A stretch of 64,000 nucleotides of DNA from assembly GCA_032128875.1 (NCBI GenBank), contig JAVLKG010000010.1, forward strand, positions 32,001 to 96,000, given 5' to 3'. This DNA comes from Candidatus Melainabacteria bacterium 17Bon1m (GTDB taxonomy: Bacteria; Cyanobacteriota; Vampirovibrionia; Obscuribacterales; Obscuribacteraceae). The translations under genes and the position numbers were made by a program. The notes under the pieces were generated by a model. It searched no databases. It saw only the letters and a list, made by a program, of their open reading frames with translations, and was not told the DNA's origin. Positions 1 through 30,048 of the stretch are shown here, one piece after another. Positions within the stretch are counted from its first letter, which is position 1, and each line of letters starts with the position of its first letter.

Positions 1-2
1 CA

Positions 3-3000
3 AAACGCGCCGGCACCGTGACCAGCGTCACCGGCAAAGAAATTGTCATCACGCAACCTTCTGGCGAAAAGCGCTACTACCCACTCATTCGTTACGACAG
101 AACCAACCAAAACACTATCCTCGACCAACGCCCAGCAGTTAAGGTCGGACAGCAAATCGAAGCCGGTCAAATCATCGCTGACGGTCCTGGTATCGACCAA
201 GGTGAATTGGCACTAGGACGCAATTTGCTCGTAGCCTTCATGCCGTGGCGCGGTTACAACTTTGAGGATGCGATTGTCGTCAGAGAAGGTCTGGTCAAAG
301 ATCAAAAACTGACTCACATTGAAATTGAAAAACATTCGACCAACGTTTATCAAACTCTGCGCGGTCCTGAAATTCTCACGCCTGAAATGCCGAACGTTGC
401 AGGCAAAGACCTCGAGCACTTGGACGAACGCGGCATCGCCAAAATCGGCAGCTACGTCAATCCTGGTGATGTTTTGGTCTCCAAATTGACCCCGAAAGAA
501 GCTCGCGCTCTTTCTGCAGAAGAAGAACTCTTGCAAGCAGTATTCGGCAAAGTCGCCGAAGAAATGGCAGACAGCAGCCTGCGCGTACCGCACGGCTCCG
601 GCGGTCGCGTCATCGACATCCGCATCTTCACTCCGGAAACAACGCCGGAATTGAAAGCAGGCGTCATCTGCGAAATCGAAGTTCTCATCGCCAGACTCTG
701 CCCGGTTGAAGTGGGCGACAAGCTGGCAGGACGTCACGGAAACAAAGGCATCGTTTCAATCATTGTTCCGGATTGCGACATGCCCTACTTGCCGGACGGC
801 ACCCCTGTAGACCTCTGCTTGAACGCACTCGGCGTACCTTCCCGTATGAACGTCGGTCAGGTATTCGACGCTCAGTTGGGTCTCTACTCGCAGATTTTGA
901 ACCGCTATTACCGCATTCACCAATTCGACGAGTCACTCACCGAAGACGCATCCTTCCGCCTCATCAACGAAGCGCTCAAAGAAGCTCGCAAGATGCCCGG
1001 TTACGAATGGCTGCAAGCCAACGGCAAAGTGCAACTTTTCGACGGCAGAACCGGTGAGCCTTTCGATCGCCCGGTCTTGGTCGGTCGCCAGTACATGTTG
1101 AAGTTGAACCAACTCGTACTGCACAAAGTCAACGCTCGCTCCGGTCTCGGTGGACCGTACGCAGCAGTCACACAACAGCCGGTCGGCGGAAAAGCCAACC
1201 ACGGTGGACAAAGAATGGGCGAAATGGAAGTTTGGGCAATCCAAGCTTACGGCGCCGCCAATATCCTGCACGAGATGATGACCATCAAGGCAGACGATAT
1301 CCAGGGCAGACACCAAGCCTACGCCGATATGGTTCAAGGCAAGGAAATCACTGCCGGCGGACGCACCGCTGCATTCGACGGTCTGTGCTGCGAATTGCGC
1401 GGACTGGGCATGGAAGTCACTTTGGGCAAGATCGTCGACGATTTCGAACCCGTCGCAGACCGTTCTTGCAGCAAAGAACAAGCGCCCAAGACGCTCGAAG
1501 AAGAATATCAAGTCATGTCTGTGGACAAGGTGGAAGCGGCAGATGGCTCCAAGATCCTGGAAATTCCAGCAGGAGACTACGTGCCCCAAACCAAGCCACT
1601 GGCAGCACCAATCATCACGTCGCTCACCAACGGCAAAAACGGTTCCAAGCCGAAAATCGAAATCTCTCAAGAACCACTCATCGACGATATCGACGAGTCG
1701 GATTCGGAAGACGCCGAGGACGCTGGAGCAGCAGCCGACGGCTGGACCATCAGAATGCCAGTCAATCAACAGGCTCCGGCTTTCGATGCGACAAAGAGCT
1801 CCACTGCAATTCCGAGCATGCCCGGTTCGTTCGCCGCTGCGCCGTCAGAAGGTGTCACACCGCCTGCCGACGACAAGGTCAAGTCGATGTTGGATTCCTT
1901 TATAGAGGAACAAACCAAAGACGTCCTGGCCGGTCTCGACCTGGAAAACCTCGACCTGTCCAATCTGGACATGTTCGATTCGCTCGAAGCACAGGAAGCC
2001 CTCCTGGCGGCATTCGATGCCAAAGATCACAATGGCAACGACGAAGCAGAGCGTGGGGGCGCATTGCATGCGCCCAACCTGGGTGGCCATGTGTTGGGTC
2101 AACCAGTTCCACACAATCTGTTCGCCGATCAGCCTGCCCAGCCAATCAAAAATGAGCCTGTGCAACAACCATTGGATGGTTTTGGACCGCTCAGCATGCG
2201 CATCAATCAGCGCAATCCGAAGAATATCGAACAAGAAGCTCCGGCTTCGGAAAGCGAAGCTCGTGGGGGCGCGTTGCACGCGCCCGCGGAAAACGTTGAA
2301 CAAGTTTCAACCGAAGCGCCATCCGCTGTTCCAGTTGCTGAAGCTCCGGTAGCCGCTCCAATCGTTGAAGCTCCAGTAGCCGCTCCCGTCGTTGAAGCAC
2401 CAGTTGTCGAAGCCGCACCAGCGCCAGCTCCTGTAGCCGCAGCGCCAATATTCCTGCCCTTCCCGACTGCACAAGCACCGGCAACGCCAGCACCTGCGCC
2501 AGTTTCGGAACCAGTGGCAGAACAAGTATCCGAGACGGCTGTAGCACCAGTCACGGCTCCGGCACCCTCAATCGTGCCAGTAGTCAGAGCTTCGGCGCCT
2601 GTTCAACAGCCACAAGCTCCAGCAGTTCAACCTGAAGCTCCATTCGCTCCAGCAGCGCCTGTGATTCAAGCTGTAACGTCTGCTCCCGTGATTCAACCAA
2701 TCACGCCGGCACCTGCAGCACAGCCTGTAATCCAGCCGGTGACAGCAGCTCCACAGGCGAAAGCTCTGACAAACGAAAGCTTCGAGCCTTCGTTCGAGCC
2801 AACCACTGAGGACGAACCTGATTTCGGCTCTATCTTAAGTATGTCCATTCTGCAAACCGCCGACGCTACGGTAAGTCAAACACAGCCTGCAAGCCAGTCC
2901 GGATTGTCAGCTCTCGGCAACGAACTGACCCAGACCTCAGCACAGCCGCTAGTTGACTTCCCTTCGTTGACAGAACTGAAGTCGCTTGCCACCGAGCTCA

Positions 3001-3107
3001 TGAGCATGAACCTTGTGGACACTCGGGTGGGAGTAGGTGCCGGTAACGACGAAAAATTCGCAAATTCTTCGTCGAACCATGAGGAAACTACGAAAACAAG
3101 CGACTGA
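3..3107 (+). CDS. rpoB: Divergent RNA polymerase beta subunit (C-terminal part, 5'-truncated by the window) with a ~560-aa acidic, Pro/Ala-rich C-terminal extension
   Basis: RpoB motifs GELALGRN, GYNFEDAI, GDKLAGRHGNKG, GVPSRMNVGQ, DGRTGEPF and GGQRMGEMEVWA. The frame is open to the window edge. Homology ends near nt 1430 (ELRGLGMEVTLGK). No rpoC follows. Confidence 0.9.
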   Translation, partial: KRAGTVTSVTGKEIVITQPSGEKRYYPLIRYDRTNQNTILDQRPAVKVGQQIEAGQIIADGPGIDQGELALGRNLLVAFMPWRGYNFEDAIVVREGLVKDQKLTHIEIEKHSTNVYQTLRGPEILTPEMPNVAGKDLEHLDERGIAKIGSYVNPGDVLVSKLTPKEARALSAEEELLQAVFGKVAEEMADSSLRVPHGSGGRVIDIRIFTPETTPELKAGVICEIEVLIARLCPVEVGDKLAGRHGNKGIVSIIVPDCDMPYLPDGTPVDLCLNALGVPSRMNVGQVFDAQLGLYSQILNRYYRIHQFDESLTEDASFRLINEALKEARKMPGYEWLQANGKVQLFDGRTGEPFDRPVLVGRQYMLKLNQLVLHKVNARSGLGGPYAAVTQQPVGGKANHGGQRMGEMEVWAIQAYGAANILHEMMTIKADDIQGRHQAYADMVQGKEITAGGRTAAFDGLCCELRGLGMEVTLGKIVDDFEPVADRSCSKEQAPKTLEEEYQVMSVDKVEAADGSKILEIPAGDYVPQTKPLAAPIITSLTNGKNGSKPKIEISQEPLIDDIDESDSEDAEDAGAAADGWTIRMPVNQQAPAFDATKSSTAIPSMPGSFAAAPSEGVTPPADDKVKSMLDSFIEEQTKDVLAGLDLENLDLSNLDMFDSLEAQEALLAAFDAKDHNGNDEAERGGALHAPNLGGHVLGQPVPHNLFADQPAQPIKNEPVQQPLDGFGPLSMRINQRNPKNIEQEAPASESEARGGALHAPAENVEQVSTEAPSAVPVAEAPVAAPIVEAPVAAPVVEAPVVEAAPAPAPVAAAPIFLPFPTAQAPATPAPAPVSEPVAEQVSETAVAPVTAPAPSIVPVVRASAPVQQPQAPAVQPEAPFAPAAPVIQAVTSAPVIQPITPAPAAQPVIQPVTAAPQAKALTNESFEPSFEPTTEDEPDFGSILSMSILQTADATVSQTQPASQSGLSALGNELTQTSAQPLVDFPSLTELKSLATELMSMNLVDTRVGVGAGNDEKFANSSSNHEETTKTSD
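2052..2075 (+). repeat. REP-like palindrome read in-frame inside the RpoB tail (RGGALHAP)
   Basis: cgtgggggcgcattgcatgcgccc, same family as the intergenic copies. Confidence 0.85.
2262..2285 (+). repeat. REP-like palindrome read in-frame inside the RpoB tail (RGGALHAP)
   Basis: cgtgggggcgcgttgcacgcgccc, identical to the copies at 5821 and 29881. Confidence 0.85.
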
Positions 3108-3184: not shown

Positions 3185-4162
3185 ATGGCGACGCAAGAGA
3201 GCACCTTTAGAAATACGGCAAAAGCGATTCTCGTCGCATGCCTCGTTTCTGTCGGTATTTCCTTCGCTGTTCCTCAAAGTTCTTCCGCACAGTTTGCACA
3301 ACCGCTGCCTCCCTATCAGGCACCGCCGGAAGGCGCACCGCCTCCGATCGGCGACGGCAGCACCCCGCTCCAAGTTGAGCCGGGCGATGTGCAAGCACCA
3401 CCTTCGGTTCCATCTGGTGCAGCTGATTCGACTCCGGGACACAACTTCCCGGTAGGCAACGGCAGCAACAGAAGCGTTGTCCGCATCTATCGCCAGCGCG
3501 CTGGCGGTGCAACTGGACAAAATCGTGGCGAAGGCATGGTTCAAACGATCCGCCCTGATCAACTCTCGGCAGATCAAATCAGCCAAATTAATGGCATTCT
3601 CGGAATTAACATGCTGAACGGTCAAGATTCGCAAGATGTTCAAGCATCCAACGATCAAATTGAGCAAGTACAGAACGTTCTGTTCCCGTACCCACAAGCT
3701 CAAGACCAAGGCGGCAAGAAGTTCATCAACAGTGATGCTCCTGCACAAGGCTATCCAAAAGCCGGTCAAGAGAGCAGCTATGAATTCCAAGGTCCGCTTC
3801 CAACAGTAAGAACATTCTGCCGTTACCTGGTGATACTAGGTGTGGTGAGTGCCACCATCTGGATGGCTTTGTCAATGTACGCGATGGTCATGGGACACCC
3901 TTACGGCGGTGCACGTGTAGTCGGCTCGATAGCTGGATTCATGCTGCTCCTCATGGGCTACACCATCTGGAAGATTGTGCAGATGAACACCTTCAATGCG
4001 ATGAGTGACAGACCTGCAATCGTTCAGAACAGACCGAATGATGCGCAATCAAATCAAATGAATGCGCCGGATTTACCGCCCAACAATCCTGGGGCGGGTG
4101 GCGGAAGACCAAACAGGTCAGGCGTGCCGGTTATGCCTCTGTACAACGCGCAAAACCCATAA
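3185..4162 (+). CDS. Exported/membrane protein with a Pro/Gln-rich region and a C-terminal two-helix TrbC/VirB2-pilin-like segment
   Basis: Signal peptide (…PQSSSA). Two hydrophobic helices joined by a short G-H-P-Y-G-G loop. The pilin resemblance is by eye only. Confidence 0.55.
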   Translation: MATQESTFRNTAKAILVACLVSVGISFAVPQSSSAQFAQPLPPYQAPPEGAPPPIGDGSTPLQVEPGDVQAPPSVPSGAADSTPGHNFPVGNGSNRSVVRIYRQRAGGATGQNRGEGMVQTIRPDQLSADQISQINGILGINMLNGQDSQDVQASNDQIEQVQNVLFPYPQAQDQGGKKFINSDAPAQGYPKAGQESSYEFQGPLPTVRTFCRYLVILGVVSATIWMALSMYAMVMGHPYGGARVVGSIAGFMLLLMGYTIWKIVQMNTFNAMSDRPAIVQNRPNDAQSNQMNAPDLPPNNPGAGGGRPNRSGVPVMPLYNAQNP

Positions 4163-4256: not shown

Positions 4257-4961
4257 ATGGCATTGGGTAATACAGCTAATTTGATTCTCGCGGCAGTTGC
4301 GGCCTCGACCCTCACTTTGTCTGTTGCCGCACCGCAAGCTCAAGCCGGTCGTCCTAGTCAATCAGACTACTTCGCGACTGGTGGACATAGTGTTCCACCT
4401 GCAAAACCAGCACCGGCTCAAGACAACAGCAAGTATCCGAAAAACACCGATCCGCTCGCAGGACGCCAAGGCGCCGGAGCACTGTACTCGGACAAGTCTC
4501 CTCAATTAGATTGGTTCGAAATCTTCGATGAGTACGTTTGGACACTGCTACCAAATGAAGAAGACAAATCAGTTCTTTCCCGACCAATCAACAACGAACT
4601 GGAAAGAGTGCAGGACTACATCAAAGTTTGCTCAAAGATTTCCAAGAACTATAGAACTCTAGCAATCAACGTTCGAAAACTTCCAGTACCGCCAAACAGC
4701 CCAGGGCTCAATAAATATCAAACTCTGAAAGCTGACTTCTATGTAGATATGGCGACGGTATACGAAGACTTGATTCGACCAAGAAAAACTAGAACACAAG
4801 AAGAATTACAAGCGCAGCTTCAAGACATCAAAGAAAGAGCAGAGCAACTAAAGGTAAACAGTAACAACCTGCTCACCATGGACATGGACCTTAGACGAAC
4901 CTTCCGAGTACACCAGCCGAAACGCACAGATGCCTTGAGGCGATACGTAGAAAACAAGTAA
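4257..4961 (+). CDS. Hypothetical exported helical protein
   Basis: Signal peptide ending AQA, coiled-coil-like C-terminus, RBS-like AAGGGA upstream. Confidence 0.75.
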   Translation: MALGNTANLILAAVAASTLTLSVAAPQAQAGRPSQSDYFATGGHSVPPAKPAPAQDNSKYPKNTDPLAGRQGAGALYSDKSPQLDWFEIFDEYVWTLLPNEEDKSVLSRPINNELERVQDYIKVCSKISKNYRTLAINVRKLPVPPNSPGLNKYQTLKADFYVDMATVYEDLIRPRKTRTQEELQAQLQDIKERAEQLKVNSNNLLTMDMDLRRTFRVHQPKRTDALRRYVENK

Positions 4962-5037: not shown

Positions 5038-5814
5038 ATGGCTATCCAACTCAACGACAGAGATCTCCTGATCTTCCAATTGATTGATGAGCACAGGGTC
5101 CTGCTTGAAAAACATATTTCCTGGTTTATTTCCGGCGAAGACAAGCCTGTTCTTATCCGCGATCGCCTACGGAAGTTGTTCTATCTGGACTACCTGCTCT
5201 GCCACCGTCACGGCACCAAACTTCCCTGGTGGACAACGCCCACCAAGCCGCTCGTATACATGCTCTCTGGCATCAGCCGCTCAGCAGCCAATGTTGGCGA
5301 AGAAGAGCTTGACCTTTATGACAGCGAAATTCAACGTCACTTCCTCGAAGTAGCCAACCTGAGAATGCTTGGCCTCATCGATCAGAAAGACGAGAAGCTC
5401 TCGAAATTCACCTGGACGACAGTGAAAACTGAAAAGCCCGGCAAGACCGTCGACGCTTTCGTCACCTTCGTTCAAAACGCAAGAACTCACAAGATCGCCA
5501 TCGTCAACCATGCGACCGCAACAACTGAATTGATTCCTTCGATTGACGAAGCCATCAAATCCGGTGCCGAACATGTGTTGCTCGTATCACGCGATGACGC
5601 TCACCAGGCTGCTTTGCAAAAGATTGTTGCACAAAGTGGATCGATCAACATCAAGCGCTGCTTGTTTGCGACCCACCATGAAATCTATCGCGAAGGTTTG
5701 ATCACCACCGCGTGGACTACATGCGACAACGCCAAAGCAACCGTGTTTGCAAAGCCTGTGGAAGCTGCTCCGACAACCAACTGGGCAACCATGCCGGTAG
5801 CAACAGCCGTGTAA
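5038..5814 (+). CDS. Replication-relaxation (Replic_Relax)-like winged-helix protein, nuclease motif apparently degenerate
   Basis: The N-terminus LNDRDLLIFQLIDEHRVL…IRDRLRKL matches the family pattern. The VDA motif is present, but the downstream acidic residues are missing. GAGG RBS. Confidence 0.55.
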   Translation: MAIQLNDRDLLIFQLIDEHRVLLEKHISWFISGEDKPVLIRDRLRKLFYLDYLLCHRHGTKLPWWTTPTKPLVYMLSGISRSAANVGEEELDLYDSEIQRHFLEVANLRMLGLIDQKDEKLSKFTWTTVKTEKPGKTVDAFVTFVQNARTHKIAIVNHATATTELIPSIDEAIKSGAEHVLLVSRDDAHQAALQKIVAQSGSINIKRCLFATHHEIYREGLITTAWTTCDNAKATVFAKPVEAAPTTNWATMPVATAV

Positions 5815-5820
5815 GAGTGG

Positions 5821-5898
5821 CGTGGGGGCGCGTTGCACGCGCCCAACTGTAGGGGCGCATTATGCGCCGAGTTGTAGGGGCGATGCAGTGCGTCGCCC
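5821..5898 (+). repeat. Cluster of three REP-like palindromes
   Basis: cgtgggggcgcgttgcacgcgccc, gtaggggcgcattatgcgcc and gtaggggcgatgcagtgcgtcgccc, directly after the stop codon. Confidence 0.85.
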
Positions 5899-12955: not shown

Positions 12956-13016
12956 GGGCGCATGCAATGCGCCCCCACGATAATTGCAAAAAAAGGCGCG
13001 TGCAGTGTGCCCCCAG
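12956..13016 (-). repeat. Two REP-like palindromes (reverse orientation, the second degenerate)
   Basis: gggcgcatgcaatgcgcccccacg and ggcgcgtgcagtgtgcccccag. Confidence 0.8.
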
Positions 13017-29820: not shown

Positions 29821-30048
29821 CGTGGGGGCGTGTTGCACGCGCCTTGTTTGCGTGGGGGCGTGTTGCACACGCCTTGTTTGCGTGGGGGCGCGTTGCACGC
29901 GCCCTTTTTGCGTGGGGGCGCGTTGCACGCGCCCTTTTTGCGTGGGGGCGCGTTGCACGCGCCCCGTTTCGTAGGGGAGGCACATGTGCCTCCCTGGCAG
30001 GGAGCCGCATGCGGCTCCCCTACAAGTGAAAGCCGCATGCGCCCCTAC
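29821..30048 (+). repeat. Tandem array of five 30-bp REP-like units plus three related GTAG-type palindromes
   Basis: Units start at 29821, 29851, 29881, 29911 and 29941, followed by gtaggggaggcacatgtgcctccc and gggagccgcatgcggctcccctac. Confidence 0.92.

Follow-up and report, generated by a model that had tools for sequence, protein, structure and literature searches.

Background

A single core RNA polymerase, in which only the sigma factors are varied, is the consensus for bacteria, and the exceptions named in the passages of PMC5431353 on this subject are some actinomycetes which carry a mutant-type rpoB. In Nonomuraea gerenzanensis (rpoB(R)) and Nocardia farcinica (rpoB2) a second gene for the beta subunit is found together with one set of the other subunits, and the two copies are described there as wild-type and mutant-type genes which differ by few substitutions and an indel in the rifamycin (Rif) clusters (H526N, S531Y). 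Two polymerase forms with different properties, and a global regulatory role, have been proposed for these cases (PMC5431353, same passages). Here we describe a second and deeply diverged rpoB gene from Candidatus Melainabacteria bacterium 17Bon1m, a member of the non-photosynthetic Obscuribacteraceae (Cyanobacteriota; Vampirovibrionia), which runs into a stretch of 64,000 nucleotides (assembly GCA_032128875.1, contig JAVLKG010000010.1, positions 32,001 to 96,000; G000:C10:32001-96000 in our numbering). This whole stretch is referred to as the window.

Like the actinomycete cases, this genome combines a second rpoB with one set of the other subunits. Unlike the actinomycete duplicates, the paralog leaves H526 and D516 unchanged, carries S531T and L533F, shares only 45% identity with the wild-type copy, is present in a whole family of another phylum, and is equipped with a long tail and an operon that includes exported proteins. 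No published description of a second rpoB in Obscuribacteraceae or Melainabacteria was found in the full-text literature, with subscription papers and supplements outside the search; apart from unrelated papers, only the actinomycete cases were retrieved. The passages of a dating study of Vampirovibrionia RpoB (PMC8047818) mention no second copy. A second beta subunit is known in kind; what is new is its deep divergence, its presence throughout a family, its tail and its place in an operon.

Results and Discussion

A complete second beta subunit gene

The initial annotation was made on positions 3..1430 of the window (+ strand) and had proposed an orphan beta paralog with intact catalytic motifs. 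All the motifs quoted there are present in frame +3 of this stretch, namely GYNFED, GDKLAGRHGNKG, PSRMN, GGQRMGEME, AEEELLQAVFGKVAEEMAD, KLNQLVLHKVNARSGLGGPY and TAAFDGL, and the strings which had served as a reference are exactly those of the organism's own canonical RpoB (PEEKLLRAIFGEKARDVRD, KLVHLVDDKIHARSTGPY and PESFKVL). The stretch encodes residues 582-1057, i.e. the hybrid-binding, wall/flap and clamp-anchor half of beta, and matches the Pfam families PF00562 (Rpb2_6, E=9e-97) and PF04560 (Rpb2_7, E=5e-17). The motifs of the catalytic half had thus been placed correctly, but the gene does not end at position 1430. Its frame of 1615 codons starts 1741 nt upstream of window base 1 (G000:C10:30260), occupies positions 1..3107 of the window (+) and closes with a stop codon at 3105-3107, so that positions 3-1430 had shown residues 582-1057 only and the tail had been missed. 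Residues 1-1057 make up a complete beta subunit, which is followed by a C-terminal tail of about 560 residues (1058-1615).

All six Pfam domains of the beta subunit (Rpb2_1/2/3/45/6/7) are found in the paralog and follow each other as they do in the canonical copy, with lower scores for Rpb2_1 (29.3 vs 67.9), Rpb2_2 (60.9 vs 156.4) and Rpb2_45 (35.6 vs 90.5). The curated equivalog cut-offs are nevertheless exceeded, with 1043.7 bits for NCBIfam NF001616 (cut-off 896; canonical copy 1628.5) and 995.9 for TIGR02013 (cut-off 801.15; canonical copy 1664). Among solved structures, the best matches are the beta chains of three cyanobacterial RNA polymerases (898, 885 and 874 bits), followed by a match of 810 bits, and the best of them, 8syi_C, is colinear with the paralog over residues 5-1055. 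When compared to the housekeeping beta of cyanobacterial type (8syi_C, 8gzg_C, 8h3v_A), the paralog likewise shows six domains in the same order without large insertions and retains the residues for Mg and nucleoside triphosphate (NTP) as well as the hydrophobic face of the flap tip. It differs from that protein by the lack of a following rpoC, by fixed changes in the i-site and switch region, by its tail and by its long stem in the trees. A fold computed for the fragment of residues 930-1160 had a mean predicted local distance difference test (pLDDT) value of 40.6, too low to be informative.

The genome (G000; 7.55 Mb in 35 contigs, 93.2% complete, 4.49% estimated contamination) was searched over all open frames and contains two RpoB-like genes only, one RpoC1 and one RpoC2. 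The canonical rpoB (1179 aa) is located on contig C9 and is followed by genes of 601 aa (rpoC1) and 1228 aa (rpoC2), an arrangement of the split type known from cyanobacteria, while the paralog lies on contig C10; the assignment of the latter as a second beta subunit gene was therefore correct. Searches with hidden Markov models found one rpoC1-type gene and one gene each for rpoA, omega, NusA and NusG, in addition to 17 genes of the sigma-70 family, and the single rpoA is located on C10, the same contig as the paralog. Beta is the sole duplicated component among the polymerase parts searched. As had been noted initially, no rpoC follows the paralog; its flanks are a gene for a tetratricopeptide repeat (TPR) protein and a gene termed F2 below, so that it lacks the operon context of a housekeeping rpoB.

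The paralog shares 43-45% identity with every canonical RpoB. Paralog and canonical RpoB of this genome are 45% identical overall and 51% identical over the part encoded by window positions 3-1430. The identity is lowest in the lobe/protrusion part (residues 1-345, 35%) and reaches 49% in the fork, 45% in external domain 1, 51% in Rpb2_6 and 48% in Rpb2_7. Judged from these values, the surfaces facing downstream DNA and accessory factors, which we take to be those of the lobe and protrusion domains, appear to be the most altered.

Contamination as a source of the second gene is excluded because the paralog and the canonical gene share one contig in three related genomes (G067, G101, G104), because C10 carries the only rpoA, and because the base composition matches. 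In detail, the GC content and the GC content at third codon positions (GC3) are 0.538/0.605 for the paralog core and 0.528-0.530/0.591-0.603 for rpoB, rpoC1 and rpoC2.

Selection and origin

Ratios of nonsynonymous to synonymous substitution (dN/dS) were calculated pairwise by the Nei-Gojobori method over the 1057-codon core, using our own script, for the three pairs which were unsaturated; between genera dS was saturated. For the paralog core and the canonical rpoB, respectively, the values are 0.005 and 0.008 (G000 vs G011), 0.028 and 0.024 (G000 vs G007), and 0.039 and 0.036 (G000 vs G002). Purifying selection on the paralog is as strong as on the housekeeping copy. Between genera, dN is 0.15-0.21 for the paralog vs 0.05-0.10 for the canonical gene (about 1.8 to 3 times), and the tail is looser with a dN/dS of 0.15-0.27. 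No internal stop was present in any of the paralog matches listed in the searches of the order and the class. A decaying pseudogene, which had also been considered, is refuted by the core dN/dS of 0.005-0.039. The initial annotation had named a sole rpoB, a frameshifted upstream part or a dN/dS near 1 as findings that would speak against its proposal, and the genome instead shows two copies, an upstream part without frameshift and a dN/dS of 0.005-0.04.

Phylogenetic trees were calculated under LG+C20+F+G4 with a quick search. The first contained 63 rows, i.e. 11 paralogs, 16 canonical sequences of the class, 12 of the phylum and 24 representatives, the latter being every fourth of 114 proteins of 1040-1450 aa. 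For the second tree of 37 rows, four loci were dropped whose longest open reading frame was not rpoB (L062, L071, L072, L074; branch length 10), together with eight outgroup rows, most of which had long branches, and some redundant rows. In both trees the paralogs form one clade with a support of 100, whose stem measures 1.58 and 1.97 substitutions per site, respectively, and so they stand off the normal species-tree branch, as the initial proposal of a separate paralog would have it. They do not show the branch of normal length expected of a housekeeping gene, while the canonical copies group as expected.

In the free trees the paralog clade is placed outside the cyanobacterial RpoB clade and beside long outgroup branches, a position for which long-branch attraction has to be kept in mind. 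If the paralogs are constrained to group with all canonical sequences of the phylum, the likelihood is 5.2 log units above that of the free tree (p-value of the approximately unbiased test, p-AU, 0.639); a constraint with the canonical sequences of the Obscuribacteraceae is 12.5 units worse and is not rejected (p-AU 0.222). As the constraint within the phylum gives the better likelihood, we do not take the free placement as a sign of foreign origin. The data allow, but do not prove, that the paralog originated within the phylum, for instance through a duplication at the base of the family that was followed by a burst of change. The simplest course would be a single duplication, at the base of the Obscuribacteraceae or earlier, with rapid change along the stem and near constancy since then.

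Distribution

The search covered all 107 genomes of the order, of which 104 belong to the Obscuribacteraceae (including the one analyzed here) and three to a sister family. A match of the paralog type (73-100% identity) was present in at least 89 of the 104 Obscuribacteraceae. The genomes without a listed match are mostly incomplete; two exceptions (G055, G077) are 92-93% complete and highly fragmented. In the sister family, the paralog was found in one of three genomes, G027 (76% complete), on a contig of 4.5 kb, and was not found in G025 (94% complete) and G026 (88%), so that the lone case may represent a binning error. No match of the paralog type was found in 13 genomes from six other families of the class or in a sample of 150 other genomes of the phylum, and full-length matches in both sets were 40-46% identical. 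Finally, 21,516 of 1.84 billion protein representatives matched at E<=0.001, and among the best 150 of these two were of the paralog type (80% identity at full length and 82% for a fragment), the others being at most 47% identical.

One genome of the family with 8% contamination (G018) holds two copies with 81% and 80% identity to the query (C21:134268-137438 and C50:588-3758), probably from two strains in one bin. In addition, the paralog was encountered with 79-81% identity in bins titled Bryobacterales, Planktothrix, Drouetiella, Proteobacteria and Chloroflexota (L098, L108, L110, L117, L127, L152, L162, L166). Probably, these titles are wrong or the bins are mixed.

Conserved catalytic residues and an altered initiation site

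For the comparison of individual residues, E. coli K-12 RpoB was aligned with both copies, and its numbering is used for these residues. Residues were counted in 16 paralogs and 148 other RpoB sequences (21 of the class, 8 of the phylum and 119 representatives of 1040-1500 aa), where the 119 representatives are best hits to the paralog and hence a biased set. In the 148 canonical sequences, 136 columns reach a conservation of 95% or more; the paralog consensus retains 124 of these, and E813, D814, R678, Q688, K1065, K1073, R1106 and K1242 are unchanged in all 16 paralogs.

A number of other positions are fixed for a different residue in 16/16 paralogs. They include H1237Q, with H in 148/148 canonical sequences, as well as H1244N (H in 146/148), N684G (N in 142/148), Q686M (Q in 141/148), D1240L (D or E in 137/148) and D1241H (D or E in 132/148). 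Further changes are E1279Q (E in 131/148 and Q in 13/148), S1322A (S in 134/148 and A in 7/148), L1291M (L in 134/148), L533F (L in 125/148) and S531T (S in 119/148 and T in 26/148). Four of these changes (H1237Q, D1240L, D1241H and H1244N) fall into the i-site/switch-3 block at 1092..1229 (+), the paralog version of KLxHLVDDKxHARSTGPY...GGQRxGEME, in which H1237 is the histidine of KLNHLV and H1244 that of HARS. Two additional residues are inserted after the HARS serine. The block is identical or differs by one residue in all 16 paralogs, and among them there is hardly any variation in the forms which the flap tip, the GxxMxRQ motif, the switch-3 block and the C-terminus have taken in the paralog. 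This shows that these regions are under constraint in the paralog too.

According to the passages of PMC3994528 dealing with these contacts, P564, N568, R678, M685, Q688, K1065, K1073 and H1237 are located in the i and i+1 sites, and the first initiating NTP is held by bonds of its gamma-phosphate to Q688 and H1237 and of its alpha-phosphate to K1065 and K1073. Ten of 11 contact residues, among which H1237 is listed, are stated to be invariant from bacteria to humans and substitutions at six of them to cause loss of function; the passages do not specify which ten and which six are meant. Resistance to GE23077 has been mapped to E565, G566, M681 and N684 (PMC3994528, same passages). Resistance to myxopyronin and corallopyronin concerns V1275, E1279, S1322 and L1326 of RpoB, and E1279 and S1322 are in direct contact with the drug, as given in the relevant part of PMC9311656. 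Taken together, the residue pattern suggests that the chemistry at the Mg/NTP site and the RNA 3'-end is kept, while the pocket of the first nucleotide and the switch region appear to have been rebuilt.

Flap tip

The flap tip ALSAEEELLQAVFGKVAEEMADS (507..575, +; residues 750-772) retains its hydrophobic face, while its charged face has turned acidic. E898, L901, L902 and F906 are retained in 16/16 paralogs, and I905 is V in nine and I in seven of them. K900E, R903Q and K909V are fixed, E at position 900 occurring in 16/16 paralogs vs K or R in 142/148 canonical sequences, and the adjoining ARDVRD has become AEEMAD. The remodelling proposed initially is therefore seen in the charges, but does not extend to the hydrophobic residues L901, L902 and F906. 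It has been reported that the flap-tip helix inserts L901, L902, I905 and F906 into NusA (PMC5842316, in part) and that the interface with region 4 of sigma-32 includes E898, K900, L901, I905 and F906 (PMC10216364, in part). By analogy, docking of sigma region 4 and NusA is probably retained with the surrounding charges reversed. A different sigma specificity is possible, though the core contacts do not indicate such a change. The most telling changes of the protein lie outside the flap tip and affect the site of the initiating nucleotide, switch 3 and the pocket of the switch region.

The C-terminal tail

A C-terminal extension of about 110 to 560 residues is present in all paralogs, whose open frames measure 1173-1646 aa. 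It begins with a proximal module (1431..1694, +; residues 1058-1145; ...KTLEEEYQV...KILEIPAGDY...EPLIDD) which shows many invariant columns in 10 genomes of 8 genera, and continues with a variable acidic linker rich in Pro, Ala and Val (1695..2954, +) which is expanded in this genus. In six genomes, the tails comprise 211-563 residues with a net charge of -29 to -56. The tail ends with the motif DFPSLTELKSLATEL (2955..2999, +), whose consensus DFPSLxELxSLAxEL is found in 8/11 genomes and is degenerate in G016 and G022. This motif is probably an amphipathic helix or a docking peptide. The tail had no match in Pfam, NCBIfam or PADLOC.

The paralog of G021 (C4:1011966-1015136) has a short tail of odd composition, which looks frameshifted. 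The canonical RpoB also carries an acidic C-terminal extension, rich in D, E, G, S and A, which reaches about 115 residues past the E. coli end (L004:9800-10150, -), so that both beta subunits possess acidic tails of different sequence.

A conserved operon

The paralog is part of a conserved array, which had escaped the initial annotation, with the gene order F4(-) / F0 - paralog - F2 - F3 - F5 in 11 genomes of 9 genera, with F4 missing in one and F5 in one. The distance from the F0 stop to the paralog start is 0, -1 or -4 nt in 11/11 genomes, and the later gaps mostly measure 9-128 nt, which fits co-transcription and translational coupling. A scan of the array for promoters and terminators gave counts no higher than in shuffled sequence.

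F0, the upstream gene, encodes a TPR protein whose conserved signal peptide ends in AxA/TKL (by inspection). The next gene after the paralog, F2 (3185..4162, +), encodes a protein of 325 aa which begins with a signal peptide and has hydrophobic helices at its C-terminus, and F3 (4257..4961, +) a protein of 234 aa with a signal peptide. The array is closed by F5 (5038..5814, +), a cytoplasmic protein of 258 aa whose first ~77 residues are nearly invariant. F2, F3 and F5 belong to no Pfam, NCBIfam or PADLOC family. For F3, a search of the Atlas returned nothing at or above 0.9, and the sole lead for F5 was a cluster bearing Replic_Relax at rank 7 with a score of 0.93. The predicted fold of F5 has a mean pLDDT of 61.4; only residues ~100-240 are confident and the conserved N-terminus is below 50. 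Foldseek found no match of this model in the PDB at E<=0.001, the weak rows including nitrilase-type amidases and restriction endonucleases. A complex prediction of tail residues 1040-1615 with F5 scored 0.01 and was returned as 'no answer', which speaks neither for nor against binding. F3 and F5 were found in G027 and not in G025, G026, G028 and G033, which is the distribution of the paralog itself in these five genomes.

F4 is a response regulator of the NarL/LuxR type (L003:6819-7628, -; upstream of the window) which is transcribed divergently from the F0-paralog operon in 10/11 genomes. With a conservation of 84-99%, vs 32-60% between genera for the other neighbours, it may be considered a candidate regulator of the operon.

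A second core enzyme?

We lean towards the view that the paralog is a functional second beta subunit (beta-2) which uses the same alpha, gamma/beta' and omega as its housekeeping counterpart and would give rise to an alternative RNA polymerase with altered initiation and clamp/switch behaviour. As there is one rpoC1/rpoC2, rpoA, rpoZ, nusA and nusG, beta-2 would have to compete with the housekeeping beta for alpha2, gamma/beta' and omega, and this competition would yield a second core enzyme. Such a core is expected to keep the catalytic chemistry as well as the docking of sigma region 4 and of NusA. From the housekeeping core it would be set apart at the site that holds the first (initiating) nucleotide, at switch 3 and the switch-region pocket which governs clamp movement, at the lobe and protrusion domains which presumably meet downstream DNA and accessory factors, in the charge of the flap tip, and by a long acidic tail that ends in a conserved putative docking helix. 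Beta-2 would be made from the conserved operon, its translation coupled to that of an exported TPR protein, and the divergent NarL-type regulator may control this operon. More tentatively, and with considerable doubt, one may imagine two cores of which the second, with a rebuilt initiating-nucleotide site (H1237Q, N684G, Q686M, H1244N) and switch region, starts chains in another way, for example from an unusual first substrate or primer or at promoters closed to the housekeeping enzyme, is insensitive to several inhibitor classes, is tethered by its tail to a partner, and serves a dedicated programme that is switched on together with co-transcribed envelope proteins.

Several observations weigh against a working second enzyme. 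H1237, the contact of the gamma-phosphate, is replaced by Q in every paralog and by nothing in any canonical sequence, and N684G, Q686M, D1240L, D1241H and H1244N lie in or beside the same initiating-nucleotide site, so that de novo initiation could be impaired. Three of the four operon neighbours have signal peptides, which makes their contact with a cytoplasmic polymerase unlikely. The initial annotation had suggested a search for divergent rpoC and sigma paralogs; the genome has one rpoC1-type gene and 17 genes of the sigma-70 family, and no paralogous beta', sigma or other partner was identified. In addition, three public runs labelled as RNA, which come from the likely source sample and contain the whole stretch, are genome-like over 18 kb (G000:C10:24001-42000). 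These runs (RNA-Seq cDNA) yield contigs of even depth over all genes on both strands, share breakpoints with the DNA run and include records of up to 137 kb; since they resemble genomic DNA, they provide no evidence of transcription. Four other RNA runs contained only 5-8% of the sequence words.

The same changes could be explained if beta-2 were a look-alike which makes no RNA of its own and whose role, through contacts to beta', sigma, NusA or DNA, is that of a regulator, decoy or scaffold, with its tail acting as a nucleic-acid mimic or tether. H1237Q, N684G and H1244N affect residues that are otherwise almost never changed (148/148, 142/148 and 146/148 canonical sequences), two of them, H1237 and N684, being placed in the i and i+1 sites by the passages of PMC3994528, and a long acidic tail without a beta' of its own would suit such a role. 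We nevertheless consider it unlikely, because E813, D814, K1065, K1073, R1106, R678 and Q688 are all retained and purifying selection at the housekeeping level on the hybrid-binding region is hard to explain without RNA synthesis. Slightly less probable still, albeit compatible with a functional beta-2, is a spare subunit that escapes inhibitors, similar to the actinomycete rpoB(R)/rpoB2, by which transcription would continue under rifamycins, GE23077-like peptides or myxobacterial alpha-pyrones. Two rpoB paralogs are on record for Nonomuraea and Nocardia (PMC5431353, passages cited above), and fixed changes do occur in three inhibitor sites, i.e. S531T/L533F in Rif cluster I, N684G in the GE23077 site and E1279Q/S1322A, which affect the two direct myxopyronin contacts of beta and two of the four RpoB resistance positions (PMC9311656, in part). 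On the other hand, 55% of the residues differ from the canonical copy, far beyond the needs of resistance, the main Rif-resistance positions H526 and D516 are unchanged, and S531T, T563S, I572V, E1279Q and S1322A occur naturally in 26, 10, 29, 13 and 7 of the 148 canonical sequences. Moreover, the beta' half of the myxopyronin pocket is common to the housekeeping enzyme, the conserved array contains no biosynthetic genes, and the tail and the operon would be left unexplained.

An artefact or relic, i.e. a misbinned contig, a decaying pseudogene or a recent foreign gene, might be suspected from a contaminated draft in 35 contigs and from the free trees, which place the paralog outside the cyanobacterial RpoB clade. 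This reading can be regarded as refuted, given that both genes share a contig in relatives, that C10 has the only rpoA, that the frames are intact in the listed genomes, that the dN/dS is 0.005-0.04 and the GC3 of 0.605 is like that of rpoB/rpoC, and that the within-phylum tree is better by 5.2 log-likelihood units.

If beta-2 assembles, it would constitute a natural experiment on the initiating-nucleotide site and the switch region, both of which are drug targets, and on control at the level of the core vs that of sigma. A more practical point concerns genome quality. As the paralog passes the TIGR02013 cut-off, marker pipelines would be expected to count a duplicated single-copy rpoB, which would inflate contamination estimates and disturb phylogeny and typing based on rpoB. 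This double counting may contribute to the contamination estimates of 1-12% across the family.

A repeated palindrome

The tail region of the gene contains two in-frame copies of the palindrome GGGGCGCRTTRCAYGCGCCC (2056-2075 and 2266-2285), each of which encodes GGALHAP. This 20-nt palindrome has 64 exact-pattern copies in the genome, including intergenic ones, and occurs in the window also at 5825-5844 and 12956-12974 and as a triple tandem at 29885-29964. In assembled public runs, it is the site of many contig joints.

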